The position numbers and the translations under genes were made by a program. Source: a virus (taxonomy: Duplodnaviria; Heunggongvirae; Uroviricota; Caudoviricetes). Taken from it: a stretch of 42,581 bases of DNA. Numbering within the stretch: the first letter of the stretch is position 1; each line of letters starts with the position of its first letter. Below are positions 1 through 42,581 of the stretch, in pieces. The notes beneath the pieces were generated by a model that ran no database searches, was not told where the DNA came from, and worked only from the letters and a program-made list of their open reading frames with translations. The DNA is taken from IMG/VR virus record IMGVR_UViG_3300045988_019953, positions 1 through 42,581 of that record; one strand, 5' to 3'.

Positions 1-77
1 TGGTCAATTAAATGCCGAGTTTTATGTTCGCAGTGCATAGCCCACCCATACATCGACTCGAAGACATAAAAGTCTGG
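1..77. repeat. Terminal direct repeat, left copy (identical to 42505-42581)
   Basis: Exact 77/77 match between window start and end, read directly; truncated by window edges so true length unknown. Confidence 0.9.
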
Positions 78-254
78 TTTGGCAAATGTCGTGCGCTTAA
101 TCTGCGACACGTGGCGGCCTATATCTTTAGGCCGTGGTACTTTGCCTAAGTACGCCATCTCTTCCATCTGGTGAGCACCGGACGGCGCACGCAATAGCCA
201 TAGCGCCTCTGTGTTATCCCGCCTGTCTACGGCGCGGTAGAGTTGGTAAATCAT
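1..254 (-). CDS. Hypothetical protein, 3-prime end wraps the junction (90 aa if circular; last 6 codons at 42486-42504)
   Basis: ATG at 252-254; manual translation open to base 1 and in frame across junction to TGA at 42486-42488; not in track because split by linearisation. Confidence 0.5.
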   Translation of the reverse strand, partial: MIYQLYRAVDRRDNTEALWLLRAPSGAHQMEEMAYLGKVPRPKDIGRHVSQIKRTTFAKPDFYVFESMYGWAMHCEHKTRHLID

Positions 255-4304: not shown

Positions 4305-4333
4305 TTGACTTTTCACTAAAAATGTGCTAAGCT
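4305..4333 (+). promoter_or_regulatory. Sigma70-like promoter TTGACT-17-TAAGCT driving conserved element copy A
   Basis: -35 at 4305-4310, -10 at 4328-4333; 28 of 29 positions identical to promoter at 15639-15667. Confidence 0.55.
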
Positions 4334-4339
4334 CCACCT

Positions 4340-4560
4340 GAGCTTGTGAAGTATGAACAAGCGACCGTGTCACGGCAGGAAACGGAGCGGGGCGTTAGCC
4401 CTGAGTGTAGTTTCGCTGACGCGTCCGGAAGGCCACTGGTCTATTGCAAAAATCCCCTAAGTTACATAAGTAACTAATTTTCCTTAAGTTTCTTAATGTG
4501 CTGTAGATTCGCAACCGTAAAAATGTAACGATTATTGGGCAGGCTTAAAGCCTGCCCTTT
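4340..4560 (+). ncRNA. Candidate structured small RNA, copy A
   Basis: Promoter-to-terminator unit with no ORF; about 115-nt core conserved with copy B, with two compensatory stem substitutions. Confidence 0.35.
4537..4560 (+). terminator. Rho-independent terminator (GGGCAGGCT-TAA-AGCCTGCCC plus TTT)
   Basis: 9-bp GC-rich stem followed by a short T tract. Confidence 0.55.
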
Positions 4561-4693: not shown

Positions 4694-4876
4694 ATGTTTA
4701 AGAAGGGTCAGTTGGTGAAAACAAAGCGCAGCCGGCAACACGTAATAGTTACCAAAGACGAGGATGAATATGGTGTTGTCGCCGTATTTAGCCTTATACG
4801 GAAGAAACGTGGTTATGTTCATCACAATAATTTACAGCTTATCGGCAACAATTTTAAATTCAAAGGGGCGAAGTGA
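4694..4876 (+). CDS. Hypothetical early protein (60 aa)
   Basis: ATG 4694 after AGGAG; track ORF begins at upstream GTG 4685; stop overlaps next start (TGATG). Confidence 0.5.
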   Translation: MFKKGQLVKTKRSRQHVIVTKDEDEYGVVAVFSLIRKKRGYVHHNNLQLIGNNFKFKGAK

Positions 4877-5166
4877 TGGGAGAATTACCTCAATGTGAAC
4901 GCCAGTTCATTAGCTGGTTTATCCCTGTAAATAATTTCAACATTTCTGATTTGCTGGAACTAAGAGAAAAAGGTGCTCTGTGGGTGTGTAACGCCCGAGA
5001 CGTAACAAAGGCCAGGGTATGGAATTTTAGCCTACTGCGTCGCCCTAATAAGTCAGGGGCGGGTGCGGTAACGATGGACTTGTTACATCGCAAAGGTAAG
5101 TTGTTTATGAGAACGGCATCGAATCATGATGCCCGTGCCGACGACTCTGAGGGAGGTTGCCGTTAA
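4876..5166 (+). CDS. Hypothetical protein, paralog A of 15272-15517
   Basis: About 80 percent identical by eye to the minus-strand ORF at 15272-15517; translationally coupled to the upstream gene. Confidence 0.6.
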   Translation: MGELPQCERQFISWFIPVNNFNISDLLELREKGALWVCNARDVTKARVWNFSLLRRPNKSGAGAVTMDLLHRKGKLFMRTASNHDARADDSEGGCR

Positions 5167-5312
5167 TGAGAATTCGTATAACTGATGTTGATTATGTGGA
5201 CCCGCGCGATGGCGACGATTTGTCGCTTAGTTACTGGGGAGTCGCCCTTGGTGATGTGTTTGAGGTTTCCAGGGCCGGTTCCGATATGTTCATTATTGAA
5301 TGTGACGCCTGA
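5166..5312 (+). CDS. Small hypothetical protein (48 aa)
   Basis: ATG overlaps upstream stop (TAATG); below track threshold. Confidence 0.4.
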   Translation: MRIRITDVDYVDPRDGDDLSLSYWGVALGDVFEVSRAGSDMFIIECDA

Positions 5313-10386: not shown

Positions 10387-10392
10387 CCCTTT

Positions 10393-10433
10393 AGACGCGT
10401 AGGGCGCGTCTGGTGCGCTCTGATGGTCAGACG
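10393..10433 (+). promoter_or_regulatory. Two adjacent inverted repeats in the terS leader
   Basis: AGACGCG-TAGGG-CGCGTCT at 10393-10411 (perfect 7-bp arms) and GCGCTCTGA...TCAGACGC at 10414-10433. Confidence 0.4.
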
Positions 10434-10451
10434 CATATGCAAGGGGATTCT

Positions 10452-10997
10452 ATGAAGCTGAAACTCAAGCAGCCATCGCCAGAGGTGGTGCAAGCTGCGC
10501 ATGAAGAAGCTGTTAGCGCAAACCGTCGCCGTAGGCGACCACGCGGTAAACAGAGCCTTTATCAATCATCCCGTAATTCCGCCGCATTGTGGGACCCGGA
10601 CTATTGCGACGAACTGATTCGTTTCTTCGACCGCACGTCATGGGAACTTGTGCCCACGTCTAAGGGTGACGAACGCCCGCTGATTCAGGATAAGCCGCCG
10701 TCGCTGGCCCGCTTCGCCTTACACATCGGCGTCACTATCCCGATCATCAAGCTGTGGCTGCGTGAGATTCCAGCTTTTGCAGAAGCATATGAGACAGCAC
10801 AGGCGCTGGAAGAGGCGTATTTCACTGAGACAGGGGCCGCGGGTATCTCCGCTACGTTTGCTGCCGCGAAGCTGGGCCTCGGTAAAGAGAAACCAGTTGA
10901 ATCTACAGAAGAGACAGCACCGACTGAGATTATTTTCAGTGTCGCGGAGCCTGTAGGTAAAATCGTAACAACGAATATGGGCGAGGTAGAGGAATGA
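10452..10997 (+). CDS. terS: Putative terminase small subunit
   Basis: Directly upstream of and overlapping terL; ATG 10452 after AAGGGGA; assignment by position, no motif verified. Confidence 0.5.
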   Translation: MKLKLKQPSPEVVQAAHEEAVSANRRRRRPRGKQSLYQSSRNSAALWDPDYCDELIRFFDRTSWELVPTSKGDERPLIQDKPPSLARFALHIGVTIPIIKLWLREIPAFAEAYETAQALEEAYFTETGAAGISATFAAAKLGLGKEKPVESTEETAPTEIIFSVAEPVGKIVTTNMGEVEE

Positions 10998-12244
10998 GTA
11001 TTCAGCTATCCGCGCCACAGGCTTTGTTCCTGAATTGTGACAATAAATACAAAGCATACGTCGGCGGCTTCGGAAGCGGCAAAACATTTGTCGGCTGTCT
11101 CGACCTGCTTACGTTTATGCTTAAGCACCCCGGTACGCGCCTGGGCTACTTCGGCCCGACATACCCGGCCATACGCGACATCTTCTACCCGACATTCGAG
11201 GAAGCGGCTAACCTGCTTGGCCTTGATGTGCTGGTTAAATCCGGCGACAAAGAGGTTGTGGTTACTCGCGGTAAGACGGTGCTCGGAACTGTTATCTGCC
11301 GTTCGATGGATAACCCCGGTTCGATAGTCGGCTTCAAAATCGCGGCTGCGGTAGTGGATGAACTGGACGTATTGAGCCGCGAGAAAGCTGAGCTGGCGTG
11401 GAACAAAATTGTGGCCCGTATGCGTCTGGTTATACCTGGCGTAACTAACCACATCTCTGTCACCACGACACCGGAAGGATTCAAGTTCGTCTACGCCAAG
11501 TTCAAAGAGAACCCGACGCCGAGTTACTCAATGGTGCAGGCTTCTACACACGAGAACGCGCGATTCCTGCCGCCGGATTACATTAGCTCGCTTACAGAGA
11601 CTTACCCGGCGCAACTGATTAACGCATATCTGAACGGTGAGTTCGTCAACCTTACCTCCGGCAGCGTGTATTACGCGTACGACCGCCGTAAGCACCGCAG
11701 CAAAGAGACAATTCATCCGGGCGACACGCTGTACATCGGGCAGGACTTCAACGTTACGAAGAACGCCAGCGCTGTGTACGTGCAGCGTAAAGACGGCTGG
11801 CACGCGGTTGCTGAACTGAAGGGCCTGTTCGATACGCCAGACACCGTGCGTGTAATTACTGAGAAGTGGAAATCGCAGGGCCACCGCATCGTCGTTTACC
11901 CCGATGCCAGCGGCAAGAACCGCAAAACCAACTCAGCATCAATCTCTGATATCGCATTACTCCAGCAGGCCGGGTTCGACGTTCGCGCTAAATCCGCCAA
12001 CCCCCCAGTTAAAGACCGTGTTTTAGCGGTGAATACCGCGCTGGAAAAAGGTAAGCTGTGGGTTAATGACCACTTATGCCCTGAGATAGCCAAGACGCTG
12101 GAGCAGCAGGCATACGATGATAACGGGGAGCCCGCTAAAGATGGCATCATTGACCATATGGCGGATGCTCTCGGCTATCCTGTAGTTTACGAGATGCCGG
12201 TGGTTAAACCAGTAATCAACATCCCGGTGACTTTCGCACTTTAA
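10994..12244 (+). CDS. terL: Terminase large subunit (ATPase plus nuclease)
   Basis: Walker A GGFGSGKT and Walker B-like AAVVDELD; acidic residues in C-terminal region; followed by portal. Confidence 0.85.
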   Translation: MSIQLSAPQALFLNCDNKYKAYVGGFGSGKTFVGCLDLLTFMLKHPGTRLGYFGPTYPAIRDIFYPTFEEAANLLGLDVLVKSGDKEVVVTRGKTVLGTVICRSMDNPGSIVGFKIAAAVVDELDVLSREKAELAWNKIVARMRLVIPGVTNHISVTTTPEGFKFVYAKFKENPTPSYSMVQASTHENARFLPPDYISSLTETYPAQLINAYLNGEFVNLTSGSVYYAYDRRKHRSKETIHPGDTLYIGQDFNVTKNASAVYVQRKDGWHAVAELKGLFDTPDTVRVITEKWKSQGHRIVVYPDASGKNRKTNSASISDIALLQQAGFDVRAKSANPPVKDRVLAVNTALEKGKLWVNDHLCPEIAKTLEQQAYDDNGEPAKDGIIDHMADALGYPVVYEMPVVKPVINIPVTFAL

Positions 12245-15246: not shown

Positions 15247-15272
15247 AAAGGCCCCTTTCGGGGCCTTAGTTT
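15247..15272. terminator. Bidirectional rho-independent terminator (AAGGCCCC-TTTC-GGGGCCTT)
   Basis: 8-bp GC stem with A/T-rich flanks on both sides; between convergent genes. Confidence 0.65.
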
Positions 15273-15517
15273 TATCGCACTCTCATAAATAGCTTACCTT
15301 TGCGCTGTAACAAATCCATGCCAACAGCACCTTCACCAGATTTGTTCGGGCGGCGCATTAAACTAAAGTTCCATACTCTAGCTTTTGAAGCATCTTTCGC
15401 GTTGCACACCCAAAGTCTACCGCTTTCTCTTAGGTCAAATAAGTCCGATATACTGAAATTATTAACTGGTATGAATCCGCTAATGAACTCACGTTCACAA
15501 CTAGGTAATTCTTGCAT
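15272..15517 (-). CDS. Hypothetical protein, paralog B of 4876-5166
   Basis: 81 aa; ATG 15515-15517 with GGAGGG RBS; about 80 percent identical by eye to paralog A. Confidence 0.6.
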   Translation of the reverse strand: MQELPSCEREFISGFIPVNNFSISDLFDLRESGRLWVCNAKDASKARVWNFSLMRRPNKSGEGAVGMDLLQRKGKLFMRVR

Positions 15518-15638: not shown

Positions 15639-15667
15639 TTGACTTTTCACTAAAAATATGCTAAGCT
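15639..15667 (+). promoter_or_regulatory. Sigma70-like promoter TTGACT-17-TAAGCT driving conserved element copy B
   Basis: 28 of 29 positions identical to promoter at 4305-4333. Confidence 0.55.
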
Positions 15668-15673
15668 CCACCT

Positions 15674-15870
15674 GAGCTTGTGAAGTATGAACAAGCGACC
15701 GCGGCGCGGGCAGGTAACGGAGCGGGACGTAAGTCCTGAGTGTAGTTACGCTGACGCGTTCGGAAGGGCCATACTCTATTGCTTGTGTAAAAAGTAACTG
15801 ATTTACTGAGATTGCGCCGTTTCTATGTTTAAATGATAAGGACTAGCGCCCCGCTTTACGGCGGGGCTTT
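15674..15870 (+). ncRNA. Candidate structured small RNA, copy B
   Basis: Conserved core shared with 4340-4450, bounded by promoter and terminator; no ORF. Confidence 0.35.
15848..15870 (+). terminator. Rho-independent terminator (GCCCCGC-TTTACG-GCGGGGC plus TTT)
   Basis: 7-bp GC stem followed by a short T tract; ends copy B just before the Rz-like gene. Confidence 0.5.
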
Positions 15871-22748: not shown

Positions 22749-22772
22749 AAGGCCCCTTTCGGGGCCTTTTTC
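22749..22772. terminator. Bidirectional terminator (AAGGCCCC-TTTC-GGGGCCTT)
   Basis: Same 16-mer core as 15250-15265; T tract on plus strand, A/T-rich on the other side. Confidence 0.65.
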
Positions 22773-23003
22773 TTACTCATCAATATTGCTTCGGTATTCC
22801 CGTAACTTCTCCAGACTTTCAATTGCTTCCGCTAAGTCGGTTCCTGTGTCCTTGTGCCCCCGCAAGCCCATACATAATAGCTTCTTCAATGCGTGCTGTA
22901 GCGCCGGGTCCCGGATATCGAAGGCGCGTAGCACATCGTAAACGTCTACAGTCATAGTGCTGCCGTGAGTGTTTGTCATTGTGCGGTTGTATTTTGAAGT
23001 CAT
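22773..23003 (-). CDS. Hypothetical protein (76 aa), last gene of the minus-strand island
   Basis: Track ORF downstream of the island HNH gene. Confidence 0.5.
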   Translation of the reverse strand: MTSKYNRTMTNTHGSTMTVDVYDVLRAFDIRDPALQHALKKLLCMGLRGHKDTGTDLAEAIESLEKLREYRSNIDE

Positions 23004-34855: not shown

Positions 34856-36276
34856 TTTTTACCTCTGCGCTTCATGTACTCTAGTAATATGTCTTGTACT
34901 TGCTTTTTCTCGTCGGTACGAGCCGCAACTACCTCATCTAACGTATCTTTAGCAATAATCTTGTAGATAAAAACAGGGCGATTATACCCCGATTGCTTTT
35001 GACGCGTTGGACCTATACGCTCGACAACCTGCAAATAGTGCTCGAGGTTCCAGCCTTGCGAAATAAACGCCAGATGATGGCCGCCGTCCTGTAAATTCAA
35101 ACCATGACCGGCTGACGCAGGGTGAACGCACAAAATCTCGATTTCGCCACGGTTCCACGCCTCCATCTGCTTATTGCCCTTGGCGCCTTTGGCAAACGCC
35201 TGTGCTTGCGGGAATCGCTTAAGGATACGCTCCAGTTCGTGCTTGAACTGATAGGCCACCAGTAACGGCGCGCCCTGTAACTCCTCAACAATTGACTCAA
35301 GAGCATCCAGCTTCGTGTCATGCACTTTCTCCCAGTCTTTGGTTGCTTCGCCGTCTGGCCCCGATACATACACGGCACCGGATGCAATCTGCAAACACTT
35401 CGACGTCTTCGCCGCAGCGTTAGCCGCTTCAACTTCCCCGCTTTCCAGTTCCGCGAATAACTTCTCCTCCATATCGATGTACGTCTGACGCGCTTTCTTC
35501 GGCAGGTCGATTTCAACCGGTACGATAACGGGCGCTTCACAACCGAACCACTCAGCGGCATCAATCGTGAGACTAATGTCCTTCATCTTCTGGTGGATTT
35601 CATTATCTGCGCCAGGGCGTGCGTGATATTCGCGCGCCATAGCAGATTTTCCTTTCTGCACCGAGTTAAACCAGCGGTCGGTGAACGCTGTGTACGAAGA
35701 ACCGAGTCGCTCGCCCGCGTCGATAAACCAGTTCTGCCCCCACAAGTCCTTGAGGCCGTTTGGCGACGGTGTACCGGTCAGGTTGATGAAACGCTTAACC
35801 TTACCGAACGCCACTTTACTAAGCGCCTTTGCCCTCTTGCTGCCTCCCGAACGGCTACGGAATGACTTGAGCTTCGTGCTCTCATCGGCAACGATAGCCG
35901 TAAAAGGCCAGTCGTCTTTGCCGTAGTAGTCAATGAGCCACTCGATAACTTCGTAGTTGGTACACACCACGTTAGCGTCTGACTCCAGCGCCGAGATACG
36001 GCGCTTCTCCGAACCTGTTGCATCTACGACACTCAAACAAGGGAACCGCCATTTCTCTTGTTCAGATGGCCACGTGCCAGATGCAACGCGCAACGGGGCG
36101 AGGATTAACACGCGGTCCTCTTCCGTAAGCTGTCCGTTGCGAAACAGGCGGTTTAAAGTCCACAGGACGCTACCAGTCTTCCCGGCGCCCATGCTCGCCC
36201 AAATATTACAGCGATGATGTCGCAACATGAACGAGGTCATGAGCTTCTGGTACTCGCGCCTTTGAAACTTACTCAT
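34852..36276 (-). CDS. Superfamily 2 DEAD/DEAH-type DNA helicase
   Basis: Walker A SMGAGKTG, DEST box (IVADESTK), C-terminal helicase-type region. Confidence 0.8.
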   Translation of the reverse strand: MSKFQRREYQKLMTSFMLRHHRCNIWASMGAGKTGSVLWTLNRLFRNGQLTEEDRVLILAPLRVASGTWPSEQEKWRFPCLSVVDATGSEKRRISALESDANVVCTNYEVIEWLIDYYGKDDWPFTAIVADESTKLKSFRSRSGGSKRAKALSKVAFGKVKRFINLTGTPSPNGLKDLWGQNWFIDAGERLGSSYTAFTDRWFNSVQKGKSAMAREYHARPGADNEIHQKMKDISLTIDAAEWFGCEAPVIVPVEIDLPKKARQTYIDMEEKLFAELESGEVEAANAAAKTSKCLQIASGAVYVSGPDGEATKDWEKVHDTKLDALESIVEELQGAPLLVAYQFKHELERILKRFPQAQAFAKGAKGNKQMEAWNRGEIEILCVHPASAGHGLNLQDGGHHLAFISQGWNLEHYLQVVERIGPTRQKQSGYNRPVFIYKIIAKDTLDEVVAARTDEKKQVQDILLEYMKRRGKK

Positions 36277-36763
36277 TGGGTCGTATTCCTTTGTCTAATG
36301 TTTCAAGTGCCGATACCCTGGCGGCTATTGCTTCTTCTCTTGTAGAGTAATAACCTAAATGCTTCTTTATTCCGTCAATAGTCATATACGCGGCCCATTT
36401 GTTATGCGACTCTCGCCACCTGACGCCAGGAAAGCCGCTTTTATTACTCGACCTAATTTTCTGCCATCCAGCTTTTGCGACGTTACCTTGTTGTGTCACT
36501 AACTGTAGATTTTCCAATCGGTTATCATCGTACACGCCATTTATGTGGTCAATTTGCATTCCTTCTGGAATCTTGCCGTTGTGCATCTCCCAGACTATTC
36601 TATGTGCTTGGTATATTTTACCTTTGAACTTAATACGCCTATGCCCCTTGTTTACCGAGCTTCCTGCTGTACTGCCTACCGATACTCTCGGCCTCGGTCT
36701 TACTCGCCAAATGAGGGCGCCGTTGTCGTAGGTGAATATCCTACCCCATGCTATTTCACACAT
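36269..36763 (-). CDS. HNH homing endonuclease, copy 3 of 4
   Basis: Motif MQIDHINGVYDDNRLENL plus KSGFPGVRW; RBS AAGGA. Confidence 0.8.
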   Translation of the reverse strand: MCEIAWGRIFTYDNGALIWRVRPRPRVSVGSTAGSSVNKGHRRIKFKGKIYQAHRIVWEMHNGKIPEGMQIDHINGVYDDNRLENLQLVTQQGNVAKAGWQKIRSSNKSGFPGVRWRESHNKWAAYMTIDGIKKHLGYYSTREEAIAARVSALETLDKGIRPNE

Positions 36764-37811: not shown

Positions 37812-39999
37812 AACGTTTTAACTCCTGACCTTCTGCTACAAGAGGGAACCCCTCAGCCCATTCCGGTAATTCGCACATCAACCGCTCAAGTTCAGCCACC
37901 GTGTAATCCGCCGTGTCTGGAGTTTCACATACCAGTTCATCGTGTACCGAAAGCACGATGGGGTACCCGCCACCCTCAACATTAATCATCGCATATGCTA
38001 GTAAATCACGGCACAGTGCCTGGACCAGGTTTTCACAGGCTTTGCCGCCGTGTGTGTACAGGGTGGTCCATTGACGGGTTAACGGGTGTTCGCCTTGATA
38101 CTTTATTCGCACATTCGTGTTCACCCGTCCGTCTTCGTCTGTTTCCTTTGTCACACTAACGCCGATTCCCGGATACGAGAGGATACGGCCTGACGGCAAC
38201 TCCATACACAACCACCAACCTGGAACCTTCCTACCGGATGAATCAAATTCTACAGTACGCCATATGCGGATAGCCCTTTCCCCGTTCCTGCGCAAGTGTG
38301 CCCCTGCCCAAAATTCACGACCAGGATTACGCACAGCGGCTAAAATTCCATCTTTAAGGTCACGCCAGAACGCTACTGTTTCGGGGTGTGACTCGCGCCA
38401 CATACGCTTGATAGCATCACAAGTACGCCACACTTTCTTATCGAGGATATACGATGGTCGGTCATCCTTTTCACCCGGATGCGGCGGTCGCTTTGCTTCC
38501 TGGATACGCGCCCACTCATAGCCACGTGCGGTAGCAGCCCATATGTGGTCGGGGAATGTACCGTCCATTGTTTTTGCCATCTCAATAAGGTCGAGGCCTA
38601 AGTTTTTAGCGAACGTAACGAACGCTCCGACACCCCCCTCATAGCCGAGGCCAAGCTCGCAAGCCTTGCCTATCTGTCTGATTTCCTTGAAGTTTTTCTT
38701 AATGTCATTGGGGTCCATGCCGAACATCTTGCCTGCGGTTACGCAGTAAATATCCAGTCCGGCGCGGAACGTATCAAGCGCGGTTTCTTCGCCCGCCAGC
38801 CACGCTAAACCACGGCCTTCTACGTTAGAGTAATCGGCGACGACAAACTTATGCCCGGCTTCCGGGATAATGCAGCTACGGACCGTCGATGCCGTCAGCT
38901 TGGCTACATCAAAACGGCGATGCGCGCGGCCCTTAAGTAACGCTGAAATGCCTTTATCCAGTTCATCATCGTGATAGTAACCGCGCGCCAGGTTCTGCGG
39001 CTGGAAGCCTTTACCGGCCCATCGCAGAGTTCGTTTTGCCCCGCCGTACTGCAAGCAACCGCGACGGCGGTCGTCCGACGAGCGACCTAACAGAAGCGGG
39101 TTATATTTCGTTGACGCGGTAGACGCTGCCCCGAGTCGCATCTCGATAATCGTGCGGGCGTCGTCAGGTAAATCATCATCCGCCAACAGGTCGTTAAGCG
39201 TAGACTTCTGCGCGTTGTGGATGCGGTGCGCTGGCGCAAGTTCACGCAGAATCGGCAGAAAATCCTTACCAGTAAGCGAGCCGCCGTATTTGCGTTGGGC
39301 TTCTTCCTGTAACTGGGCCTTGTGATTCTCCACGGCTTCAATCGCGGCTTCCGCTAGTGCGACGTCAACCTTAAACCCGCGGTCGTTGATTAACTGGTCC
39401 AGTTCCAGTACACGGTCCTCGAACTCGGAGTTACCCCAACGCGGCAGCTTATGGAAGACTTCACGCATCGCAGTGATGTCGCTCACAGCGTACTTGATGA
39501 ACAGCGCCCACTCGTCCGGGTGCGTTTCGGCGGTGTAGCGGCGAATTTTGTAGTTCTTCGGTGTCGGTTTAGAGAAACGCTTAATCAGCGCCTTGCCGCG
39601 TTTATCTTTCGCGTTGTCCGCAGATACGCCCAGCACTTCACACAGCGCATCAAGCGAACCAGGCAGCGCGTGACGAAACGCCCAAATCATAGTATCAATA
39701 GTGTTACTTACCGGAATATCAAAACCCCAGCAGTGCTTCATGATGAGTCTGTCGAACATTAAAAAGTTATGGCCCACGATTTTCATACGTCCACGCATAA
39801 CATTACGGAGAGCCACACGGAGGCTTATCGGCATTACTGATTCGGAAGTGCAATCCCATACTTCTACAGGACCGTCATCAACAGCATACGTACAAATTAT
39901 GACCTCTGTCGTTGGGTGCTCCGCATACGCATACGACCCGACTTTCTTTAAGTCTGCTTCGGAGAATGTCTCGGTATCCAGGTACAATAAACTAGTCAT
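37801..39999 (-). CDS. DNA polymerase, family A, with N-terminal 3-5 exonuclease domain
   Basis: Exo motif LYLDTET; pol motif A DYSNVEGR; motif C SVHDELV; RBS AAGGA; 732 aa. Confidence 0.9.
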   Translation of the reverse strand: MTSLLYLDTETFSEADLKKVGSYAYAEHPTTEVIICTYAVDDGPVEVWDCTSESVMPISLRVALRNVMRGRMKIVGHNFLMFDRLIMKHCWGFDIPVSNTIDTMIWAFRHALPGSLDALCEVLGVSADNAKDKRGKALIKRFSKPTPKNYKIRRYTAETHPDEWALFIKYAVSDITAMREVFHKLPRWGNSEFEDRVLELDQLINDRGFKVDVALAEAAIEAVENHKAQLQEEAQRKYGGSLTGKDFLPILRELAPAHRIHNAQKSTLNDLLADDDLPDDARTIIEMRLGAASTASTKYNPLLLGRSSDDRRRGCLQYGGAKRTLRWAGKGFQPQNLARGYYHDDELDKGISALLKGRAHRRFDVAKLTASTVRSCIIPEAGHKFVVADYSNVEGRGLAWLAGEETALDTFRAGLDIYCVTAGKMFGMDPNDIKKNFKEIRQIGKACELGLGYEGGVGAFVTFAKNLGLDLIEMAKTMDGTFPDHIWAATARGYEWARIQEAKRPPHPGEKDDRPSYILDKKVWRTCDAIKRMWRESHPETVAFWRDLKDGILAAVRNPGREFWAGAHLRRNGERAIRIWRTVEFDSSGRKVPGWWLCMELPSGRILSYPGIGVSVTKETDEDGRVNTNVRIKYQGEHPLTRQWTTLYTHGGKACENLVQALCRDLLAYAMINVEGGGYPIVLSVHDELVCETPDTADYTVAELERLMCELPEWAEGFPLVAEGQELKRYAK

Positions 40000-40465
40000 G
40001 GCAATAAAATTCCTTATGCAGTTTTTCTCTTAATTTCTTTACAGCGCTTTCCGCTTCTTCAAGAGTTCCGTAGCTACCAGCGTTATAACTTTTGTAGTTA
40101 AAATGTACACGCCCATAAAATCGGTTGCCGTTTTTAACTACTCCCTTAACCCCCGTTCTAGCTCCCTTATTTTTAGCGTTTCGCACATTATCCGCTGTGG
40201 TTGCTTTCCTTAGGTTAGAAATCCTATTGTCTAACCTGTCACGGTTTATATGGTCAAGAGGCCCCTCAGGCCATTCGCCGTAGTCGAAAAACCAAGCAAG
40301 CCTGTGGGCCATATAGTATCTACCCATATAAGGTATGCGCCAGTATCCGCTACTATTAATACATCCCGCAATGTCTCCGGGTTTCCCTCGTCTGTATGTA
40401 GGTTGTATCCATGTGAATATTCCGGTTTCTCGGTTATAGCTAAGAAAATCTTTTATATGTTCCAT
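39992..40465 (-). CDS. HNH homing endonuclease, copy 4 of 4
   Basis: Motif LDHINRDRLDNRISNL plus ARTGVKGV; ATG 40463-40465 after GGAG preferred over track TTG 40489. Confidence 0.8.
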   Translation of the reverse strand: MEHIKDFLSYNRETGIFTWIQPTYRRGKPGDIAGCINSSGYWRIPYMGRYYMAHRLAWFFDYGEWPEGPLDHINRDRLDNRISNLRKATTADNVRNAKNKGARTGVKGVVKNGNRFYGRVHFNYKSYNAGSYGTLEEAESAVKKLREKLHKEFYCHD

Positions 40466-40476
40466 TCTGACTCCGG

Positions 40477-40500
40477 TAAAAAGGCCCAATGAAGGGCCTT
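40477..40500 (-). terminator. Terminator-like hairpin AAGGCCC-AATGAA-GGGCCTT with T tract on minus strand
   Basis: 7-bp stem; TTTT follows on minus strand; between SSB-like gene and HNH/polymerase. Confidence 0.5.
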
Positions 40501-40519
40501 AGTTAAATTGATTCAGATA

Positions 40520-41247: not shown

Positions 41248-42489
41248 TTATTCTAAATCTTCTTCACTAACCCGATTCCACTCAGGACGTTTGTCACCTG
41301 CCGTTGCAACACATGGTGTGCCCGGCTTACGGGTAATGAAGTCTTTCAGTTCTTCTTCCGGTATGACTTTAACAGCTTCGGTAGGTGACATGAGCACTTC
41401 TTTAGTCAGCTTGTCGCCGTAGAGTTCTGCTACTTTCTCTGCATCTTTCCACGCACGATTACCAGGACGACCTTCCACCAGCTTGTACCCTGGAACTTTC
41501 TTACCGGAATGCAACGCGGTGGCCATAGCTTTCTCAACCTTGTCGATGTGCTGACGCAACAACGGCAACTTCTCATACTCAGCTACGAGTTGCTCCGGTG
41601 TCAGTTCCAGTGCAAAGTCGTCTTCCAGTTCTTCCGCCAGTACAGAATTAACTGTCTTTGTACGCGCGGCGCATTGCTCAGAGAACCGACACCACTGGCA
41701 ACCATCGACCGACGGCTTGAAGTCCGACGCTTTCAGATTCTTTTTACCACGGTAATAAGCATCAAGGGCTAATAGTGCGCGTTTCTGTGCGAACTTAGCG
41801 AACAGTTCCAGACCTTCAACCGAGATGTCCCACTCCGACGCGCCCCCGGCGTACGGCTGGAAGATGACCAGACGAACAACCGTGATGTTATAACGTCTCT
41901 TGAGTCGGCGATAAACACCGAGAGCGTAAAGCATAAGCTGTTTGTTTTCTTTAGCTTCGACACGATGCCGTCCTGTTTTCAGGTCGCCGATGATGAGCAT
42001 GTGCCCGTCAGTGTTGGCCAGTTCTTGGACGGCAACAAGGTCAGCCGTTCCAAACGTCTCAACGCCTTCATAACCCGGATGCAATACCTCAGTAAGATTG
42101 ACACGCATTTCCAACTTGGCATAAGTCGCTACATCGATAATCGCTTTGCAGTAGTCAGTGTACTTGCGCACCTGCTCAATCATGTCCGCCGTAATCAGTG
42201 CCGCACCTTTCATCGGGCTGATTAGCGCCTTAATCTGGCCTTTACCTTCATCCAGCACGTAAGCACCGACTTCGCGTTCTAACGGCAGCGCAGCGCCTTT
42301 GATGTACTGATTTAAATGGACCTCAGCTATAGTGTGGCACGCGGTCCCTGTAACGGCGGATTTACCCGAAGTGTTAGGAATATCTTTTTCACAGGCCAGT
42401 GACGCCGCGCATGACAGCCACTTTTTAGCGCCTGACGGCGACAGTAAGGCGTGTACATCGTTATTACCACCGCGTTCCTTTAAAATCAT
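41248..42489 (-). CDS. Cas4/RecB-like PD-(D/E)XK exonuclease with Cys cluster
   Basis: C-terminal CQWCRFSEQC (CX2CX5C) plus N-terminal Cys; ATG 42487-42489 overlaps the stop of the junction-spanning ORF; track lists GTG 42504. Confidence 0.7.
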   Translation of the reverse strand: MILKERGGNNDVHALLSPSGAKKWLSCAASLACEKDIPNTSGKSAVTGTACHTIAEVHLNQYIKGAALPLEREVGAYVLDEGKGQIKALISPMKGAALITADMIEQVRKYTDYCKAIIDVATYAKLEMRVNLTEVLHPGYEGVETFGTADLVAVQELANTDGHMLIIGDLKTGRHRVEAKENKQLMLYALGVYRRLKRRYNITVVRLVIFQPYAGGASEWDISVEGLELFAKFAQKRALLALDAYYRGKKNLKASDFKPSVDGCQWCRFSEQCAARTKTVNSVLAEELEDDFALELTPEQLVAEYEKLPLLRQHIDKVEKAMATALHSGKKVPGYKLVEGRPGNRAWKDAEKVAELYGDKLTKEVLMSPTEAVKVIPEEELKDFITRKPGTPCVATAGDKRPEWNRVSEEDLE

Positions 42490-42504
42490 ACCCTGTTCTC
42501 CCAC

Positions 42505-42581
42505 TGGTCAATTAAATGCCGAGTTTTATGTTCGCAGTGCATAGCCCACCCATACATCGACTCGAAGACATAAAAGTCTGG
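42505..42581. repeat. Terminal direct repeat, right copy (identical to 1-77)
   Basis: Exact 77/77 identity with window start. Confidence 0.9.

Follow-up and report, generated by a model that had tools for sequence, protein, structure and literature searches.

Circularization is a common artifact in assemblies of phage genomes that are permuted or terminally repetitive, and open reading frames (ORFs) split across contig ends are a common problem in their annotation (PMC8785237). The closest described case is that of Salmonella phages Se_F1 and others, in which SPAdes contigs of permuted genomes had identical ends of exactly 77 bp; the right copy was removed, and the genomes were treated as circular, with genes spanning the ends (PMC9409062; bioRxiv 10.1101/2022.06.14.493971). 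Exact direct repeats at the two ends of a linear sequence also mark T7-, K1E-, and K1F-type phages, whose short terminal repeats are 165 to 289 bp long (PMC5582158) and recur at the genome ends of relatives with 88 to 96% identity. Headful (pac) phages such as P22, P1, and Jerseyvirus are characterized by assemblies that close into a circle, a headful-associated terminase, and close relatives without fixed termini. The terminal redundancy of headful phages runs to hundreds or thousands of bases, cannot be seen in an assembly, and is distinct from an overlap of 77 bp.

Here, we analyze a 42,581-nucleotide stretch of tailed-phage DNA (IMG/VR record IMGVR_UViG_3300045988_019953, positions 1 to 42,581), which we refer to as the window and whose two ends share 77 bp. 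We conclude that these 77 bp are almost certainly an assembly overlap from closure of a circle and not a biological terminal repeat. The window resembles the Se_F1-type contigs in the exact length of its duplicated ends and in having a gene that spans them, and it differs in that the artifact was recognized there from the authors' own reads, whereas here it is recognized from independent assemblies and the assembler itself is deduced. Unlike the T7/K1E/K1F-type repeats, the 77 bp of the window are intragenic, occur as a single copy elsewhere, and equal an assembler k-mer length. With P22, P1, and Jerseyvirus, the window phage shares the closed assembly and the close relatives without fixed termini, and its terminase is probably of the headful-associated type; it differs from those systems in being known here from sequence alone, with no located pac site.

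Genome identity

The window phage is a Kagunavirus siphophage of Escherichia coli-like hosts. It has about 89 to 92% nucleotide identity to many E. coli phages, including K1G, K1H, SZH-1, Bas74, and fBC-Eco01, and shows the genome-wide similarity and synteny with K1G-like phages that define the genus Kagunavirus (Guernseyvirinae). After rotation, such that window position 10387 corresponds to position 1 of fBC-Eco01 and window position 1 to fBC-Eco01 33352, the window is collinear with the complete fBC-Eco01 genome over 31.9 of 42.6 kb; the gene order after rotation is likewise common to K1G, K1H, and Bas74. The best matches in the phage collection cover 62 to 78% of the first 12 kb of the window, and a near-identical record is absent. 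At this coverage, 78% at most, the window phage probably represents a separate species. Among the related records, vB_EcoM_SHAK7858 (L021) carries an Autographiviridae/Kayfunavirus taxonomy line on a Kagunavirus-like sequence, which is likely a database error.

Terminal duplication and closure of the genome

Positions 1 to 77 and 42505 to 42581 are identical at 77 of 77 bases. Comparison of prefixes with suffixes of the window found matches at lengths of 3 and 77 only, and a whole-window repeat search returned a 77-bp pair at 100% identity with a spacing of 42,504 and no third copy; these results bear out the observation, made in an earlier note on this DNA, that the ends are exactly duplicated. 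The probability that an exact 77-nt end match arises by chance is about 4^-77. Trimming one copy yields a circle of 42,504 bp with a G+C content of 50.4%. The two copies are as follows.

1 to 77 (no strand): left copy of the 77-bp overlap, within the junction gene (approximately codons 60 to 85); present as a single copy in independent assemblies and relatives

42505 to 42581 (no strand): right copy of the 77-bp overlap, redundant; trimming it leaves 42,504 bp of unique sequence

A value of 77 is a usual final k of SPAdes and the largest default for reads of about 150 bp, and we infer that the window was produced by a SPAdes-type assembler with a final k of 77. In the explanation that we propose, the path through the de Bruijn graph would have closed on itself, leaving an overlap of length k at the contig ends. 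Closure would be expected if a headful (pac-type) terminase cut virion DNA from concatemers: the virions would then hold a population of linear, circularly permuted, and terminally redundant molecules, reads from this population would cover every junction, and the assembly would close into a circle. The contig was opened at an arbitrary point, by chance within codon 85 of a conserved gene of 90 codons.

A conserved gene spans the contig ends

The gene interrupted by the contig junction lies on the minus strand. It begins with an ATG at 254-252, preceded by a Shine-Dalgarno-like GAGGG 8 nt upstream, and meets no stop as far as base 1; in the closed form, its frame extends to a TGA at 42488-42486, giving a protein of 90 amino acids with the junction inside codon 85.

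1 to 254 (minus strand): 5' part of the junction gene, with the ATG at 254-252, codons 1 to 84, and two bases of codon 85

42486 to 42504 (minus strand): 3' part of the junction gene, with the last base of codon 85, codons 86 to 90 (WENRV), and the TGA at 42488-42486

41248 to 42489 (minus strand): exonuclease of 413 amino acids, DUF2800/PD-(D/E)XK (Pfam DUF2800, E value of 1.3e-68, and PDDEXK_1; phrog_69 exonuclease)

The earlier note had described this ORF as stop-free through base 1 and, after removal of the duplicate, in frame to a TGA that overlaps the exonuclease ATG. Both points were confirmed: the stop and start codons have ATGA in common, and the reverse complement of 42486-42491 is GTATGA. 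The note's heading placed the coupled start codon across the junction as well, whereas the start in fact lies 16 nt inside the unique sequence. The exonuclease gene, with its ATG at 42489-42487 and a ribosome-binding site (GGGAG) 8 nt upstream, is wholly contained in the window and coupled to the junction gene by ATGA. The note's expectation that gene callers treating the contig as linear would mis-start the exonuclease did not hold. Linearization leaves this start undisturbed: the duplicated bases supply exactly the upstream sequence found in the circle, so that the linear window contains the complete gene together with its ribosome-binding site and the nearest in-frame stop upstream (42510-42508). 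The predicted truncation of the junction ORF by such callers does occur and has a small effect, with 84 of the 90 codons kept and QWENRV and the stop lost. On the linear contig, this ORF falls into two pieces, one of 84 codons that lacks a stop (254-1) and one of 31 codons that encodes the C terminus (42581-42486).

Closure restores a conserved protein. The reconstructed sequence matches phrog_4965 from end to end (positions 1 to 86 of 86; E value of 3.9e-45) and aligns without gaps, at 94 to 99% amino acid identity, to the products of annotated 273-nt genes in Bas74, BUCT825, phiSD1, K1G, and fBC-Eco01. DNA identity of the junction gene to these orthologues is only about 90%, and this disparity between protein and DNA indicates, from sequence comparison, that the gene is under purifying selection. 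In a comparison of 17 family members with identities as low as 60%, residues D84, W86, and E87 never vary. The codons for W86 and E87 are at 42501-42496, at the opposite end of the linear contig, so closure regains conserved residues and does more than maintain an open frame. The protein is confined to Guernseyvirinae-like phages, Serratia phage Tsm2 among them, and a Pfam search assigned the 90-residue protein to no family. Structure prediction on P0001, a 97%-identical protein that stood in for the junction-spanning one, gave a model with a confidently predicted alpha+beta fold; a structural neighbor search with this model returned nothing meaningful. The label "phosphoheptose isomerase" given to the gene in phiSD1 (L003, 1449-1721) is unsupported here and is likely a database error.

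The boundary between the 90-codon gene and the exonuclease gene (window 42486-42489) is an insertion site in relatives. The same gene is directly coupled by ATGA to the DUF2800 exonuclease gene in the window, K1G, Bas74, and phiSD1, whereas in some Kagunavirus relatives other ORFs intervene, namely one for an HNH endonuclease in fBC-Eco01 (L005, 32914-33336) and two small ones in BUCT825 (L002, 3474-3778). Several metagenome contigs diverge precisely at this boundary.

Independent assemblies and relatives read through the junction

The exact exonuclease of the window is encoded on two independently assembled contigs, scaffold_363 in ENA (ERZ28665616, SAMN06115461; 42,470 bp) and Logan contig SRR5106312_23618. 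Aligned to the closed circle, the Logan contig matches at 2,854 of 2,854 positions, from 40297 across the junction to 646, and scaffold_363 matches at 5,241 of 5,242 positions, ungapped, from 39248 to 1985. Each contains a single copy of the 77-mer and an intact called gene whose 90-residue product is identical to our reconstruction. These two assemblies, together with the collinear relatives, show that the trimmed sequence is contiguous in real DNA.

Scaffold_363 begins at window position 34823, 29 nt past the helicase stop. It is 34 bp short of the circle and, from its length, should end near 34788 inside an HNH endonuclease gene. Given that scaffold_363 opens at 34823 and the window opens in codon 85 of the junction gene, the break points are arbitrary choices of the assembler. 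The implied gap in scaffold_363 (34 nt, 34789-34822) falls within the minus-strand ORF at 34358-34855; at the same position in a relative (locus L031), an ORF of the same size (165 amino acids) matches PF13392 (HNH_3). Further ORFs matching HNH_3 are present in the genome at 36269-36763 and 39992-40489, and the occurrence of multiple such ORFs may be the cause of the break in scaffold_363.

Relatives show the same continuity. The de-duplicated junction region of 777 nt gives a single alignment, about 90% identical, well within many GenBank records (in K1G, at 32218-32994 of 43,587), and more than 20 GenBank Kagunavirus genomes are collinear through the junction. Eleven metagenome contigs that contain the junction 26-mer each align through the junction and the 77-mer as one segment, and none has more than one 77-mer-like copy. 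Thus, where a direct terminal repeat would appear as two copies at conserved ends, the assemblies, metagenome contigs, and GenBank relatives checked each have a single internal copy. The junction region is internal to the record in the roughly 445 related records searched, and those with readable starts begin, as is conventional, at sites such as the terminase genes. Scans of IMG/VR with the junction stretch and with an overlap 42-mer gave no match, nor did a scan of bacterial genomes.

Terminase type and packaging

The packaging genes of the window lie about 10 kb from its left end.

10413 to 10997 (plus strand): candidate small terminase subunit, with the position and length (585 nt) of the EF2-1 terminase small subunit and the position of that of fBC-Eco01

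10994 to 12244 (plus strand): large terminase subunit (TerL) with Terminase_6N and Terminase_6C domains, a type linked to permuted ends

A Pfam search gave no match for the candidate small subunit. TerL is 99.8% identical to that of K1H and identical at 414 of 416 residues (99.5%) to that of fBC-Eco01, and its Terminase_6N/6C domains are T4-type, unlike those of lambda-type terminases. The terminases of K1G and K1H group with those of headful packagers (PMC5582158), and the window TerL would fall in the headful clade of that study, by way of the 99.8% identity to K1H. PhageTerm detected no termini in fBC-Eco01 (PMC9825357), in a paper whose text mentions a cos site generically. Phages of the sister genus Jerseyvirus were identified as headful packagers by PhageTerm (a P1-like call), by restriction digests with circular-like patterns, and by broad bands in pulsed-field gel electrophoresis (PFGE) (PMC10783031); other evidence for this genus comes from genome permutation. 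The best-documented packaging data concern Jerseyvirus, whose TerL is only about 54% identical to that of the window. From these lines of evidence, headful packaging from concatemers is probably the reason that the reads close.

Two types of TerL occur in this phage group. At least 95% identity to the window TerL is found in 74 phage records, including K1H, fFiEco03, and fBC-Eco01, and the Jerseyviruses and some Kagunaviruses (such as Bas71) have a TerL only about 54% identical to that of the window. This distribution suggests exchange of packaging modules.

Alternative explanations

Were the 77 bp a genuine short direct terminal repeat on a genome with fixed ends and T7-like packaging, the fully assembled genome would likewise show exact direct repeats at both ends. 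Each virion would then carry one intact and one partial junction gene, and packaging would proceed from fixed ends, unlike in the relatives. However, the 77 bp lie wholly inside a conserved coding gene that is restored only by removal of one copy; the independent assemblies and all relatives checked have one internal copy; and the roughly 445 related records hold the junction region internally and start, where this can be read, at conventional places. The grouping of the terminase with headful packagers, the lack of detectable termini in the phage with a 99.5%-identical TerL, and the coincidence of 77 with a standard assembler k also count against a terminal repeat. We regard this reading as close to refuted and give it practically no weight. 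It is also very unlikely that the sequenced molecule was a truly circular replicon, either plasmid-like or a replicative form. The source is apparently a metagenome, so intracellular replicative DNA could have supplied reads, but the genome carries the complete structural and lysis genes of a virulent siphophage and is collinear with Kagunavirus isolates, the annotations of these collinear relatives list no integrase gene and no genes for partition or plasmid replication, and no tailed-phage virion genome is circular (PMC8785237).

The overlap could also be an assembly artifact on a genome whose virion ends are fixed elsewhere, either at a cos site or at a terminal repeat collapsed inside the circle. 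Because fixed-end and terminal-repeat genomes assemble as apparent circles too (PMC8785237), closure alone does not prove headful packaging, and the generic reference to cos by the fBC-Eco01 authors would fit fixed ends. We nevertheless consider such ends unlikely: PhageTerm found none in a phage sharing 414 of 416 TerL residues, TerL of the K1G/K1H type clusters with that of headful packagers, the Jerseyviruses are headful (by restriction analysis, PFGE, and the P1-like call) or permuted, and the Terminase_6N/6C domains do not correspond to a lambda-type terminase. The reading that we prefer, an assembly leftover on a circular or circularly permuted genome, was also the one put forward in the earlier note, and it agrees with the independent assemblies, the relatives, the restored gene, the terminase type, and the published 77-bp ends of SPAdes contigs.

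The complete genome is accordingly 42,504 bp and not 42,581 bp, and the practical value of this result is in annotation. Re-opening the circle, best done at the small terminase gene (approximately 10413), allows the 90-codon gene to be annotated whole and means that 25 duplicated codons are no longer doubled. Overlap artifacts of this kind are already known, and phage biology gains nothing new from this one; it serves as a worked example of an artifact proven without reads, by way of independent assemblies with the same genome.

Promoter-proximal RNA element and other intergenic features

Elsewhere in the window, a 102-nt RNA-like element occurs in two plus-strand copies, at 4340-4441 and 15674-15776. 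Each copy follows a promoter with an invariant -35 element (TTGACT), a 17-nt spacer, and an extended -10 element (TGnTAAGCT), forming promoter-plus-RNA units at 4305-4441 and 15639-15776 (plus strand). In fBC-Eco01, this promoter carries the annotation of a host promoter; a simple promoter scan scored it below threshold. Terminator-like hairpins lie about 95 nt after each copy (4537-4557 and 15848-15867) and are followed by genes.

The element is 87 to 92% identical across Kagunavirus and Jerseyvirus, in DNA that is unannotated, and early-region variants are more diverged. For a two-hairpin structure, pairing over 13 copies reaches 96.3%, compared with 30 to 40% in slid controls. The covariation score is 0.217, compared with at most 0.042 in controls; six pairs change on both sides, and none of 500 shuffles reached these values. 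A covariance model built for the element gave exactly two hits in the window and a single hit, to the late copy, in both complete relative genomes that were searched; a search of HK022 with this model gave no match, and an Rfam search returned no family for the 102-nt element. This order of promoter, structured RNA, terminator, and operon makes the element a candidate for either a cis-acting antitermination RNA, which would be similar in function and unrelated to HK022 put, or a small RNA of about 200 nt. Two small ORFs in inverted orientation, at 4873-5166 (plus strand) and 15272-15517 (minus strand), each lie near one copy of the element. Their proteins are 79% identical (63/80), and the DNA arms are 75% complementary.

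Seven occurrences of the motif TATAATAG-N4-CTATT, all intergenic, were found against 0.02 expected by chance.

998, 4644, 5872, 36978, and 41217 (plus strand) and 15543 and 24943 (minus strand): TATAATAG-N4-CTATT, a box resembling a -10 element joined to an AATAG/CTATT inverted repeat

These are probably promoter or operator sites for a phage regulator, such as the helix-turn-helix (HTH) protein encoded at 1090-1305. Between one of these motifs and the gene for the tail assembly chaperone, positions 24991-25055 (plus strand) gave a borderline match to the Rfam int-alpA RNA (RF02996), with a score of 35.8 bits, equal to the gathering score, and an E value of 7e-4; the match is unreported under the gathering setting. 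Finally, near-identical G+C-rich hairpins (AAGGCCCCTTTCGGGGCCTT) are located at 15248-15274, 22749-22775, 34200-34226, and 40481-40507, at the boundaries of converging gene blocks, where they look like bidirectional intrinsic terminators.
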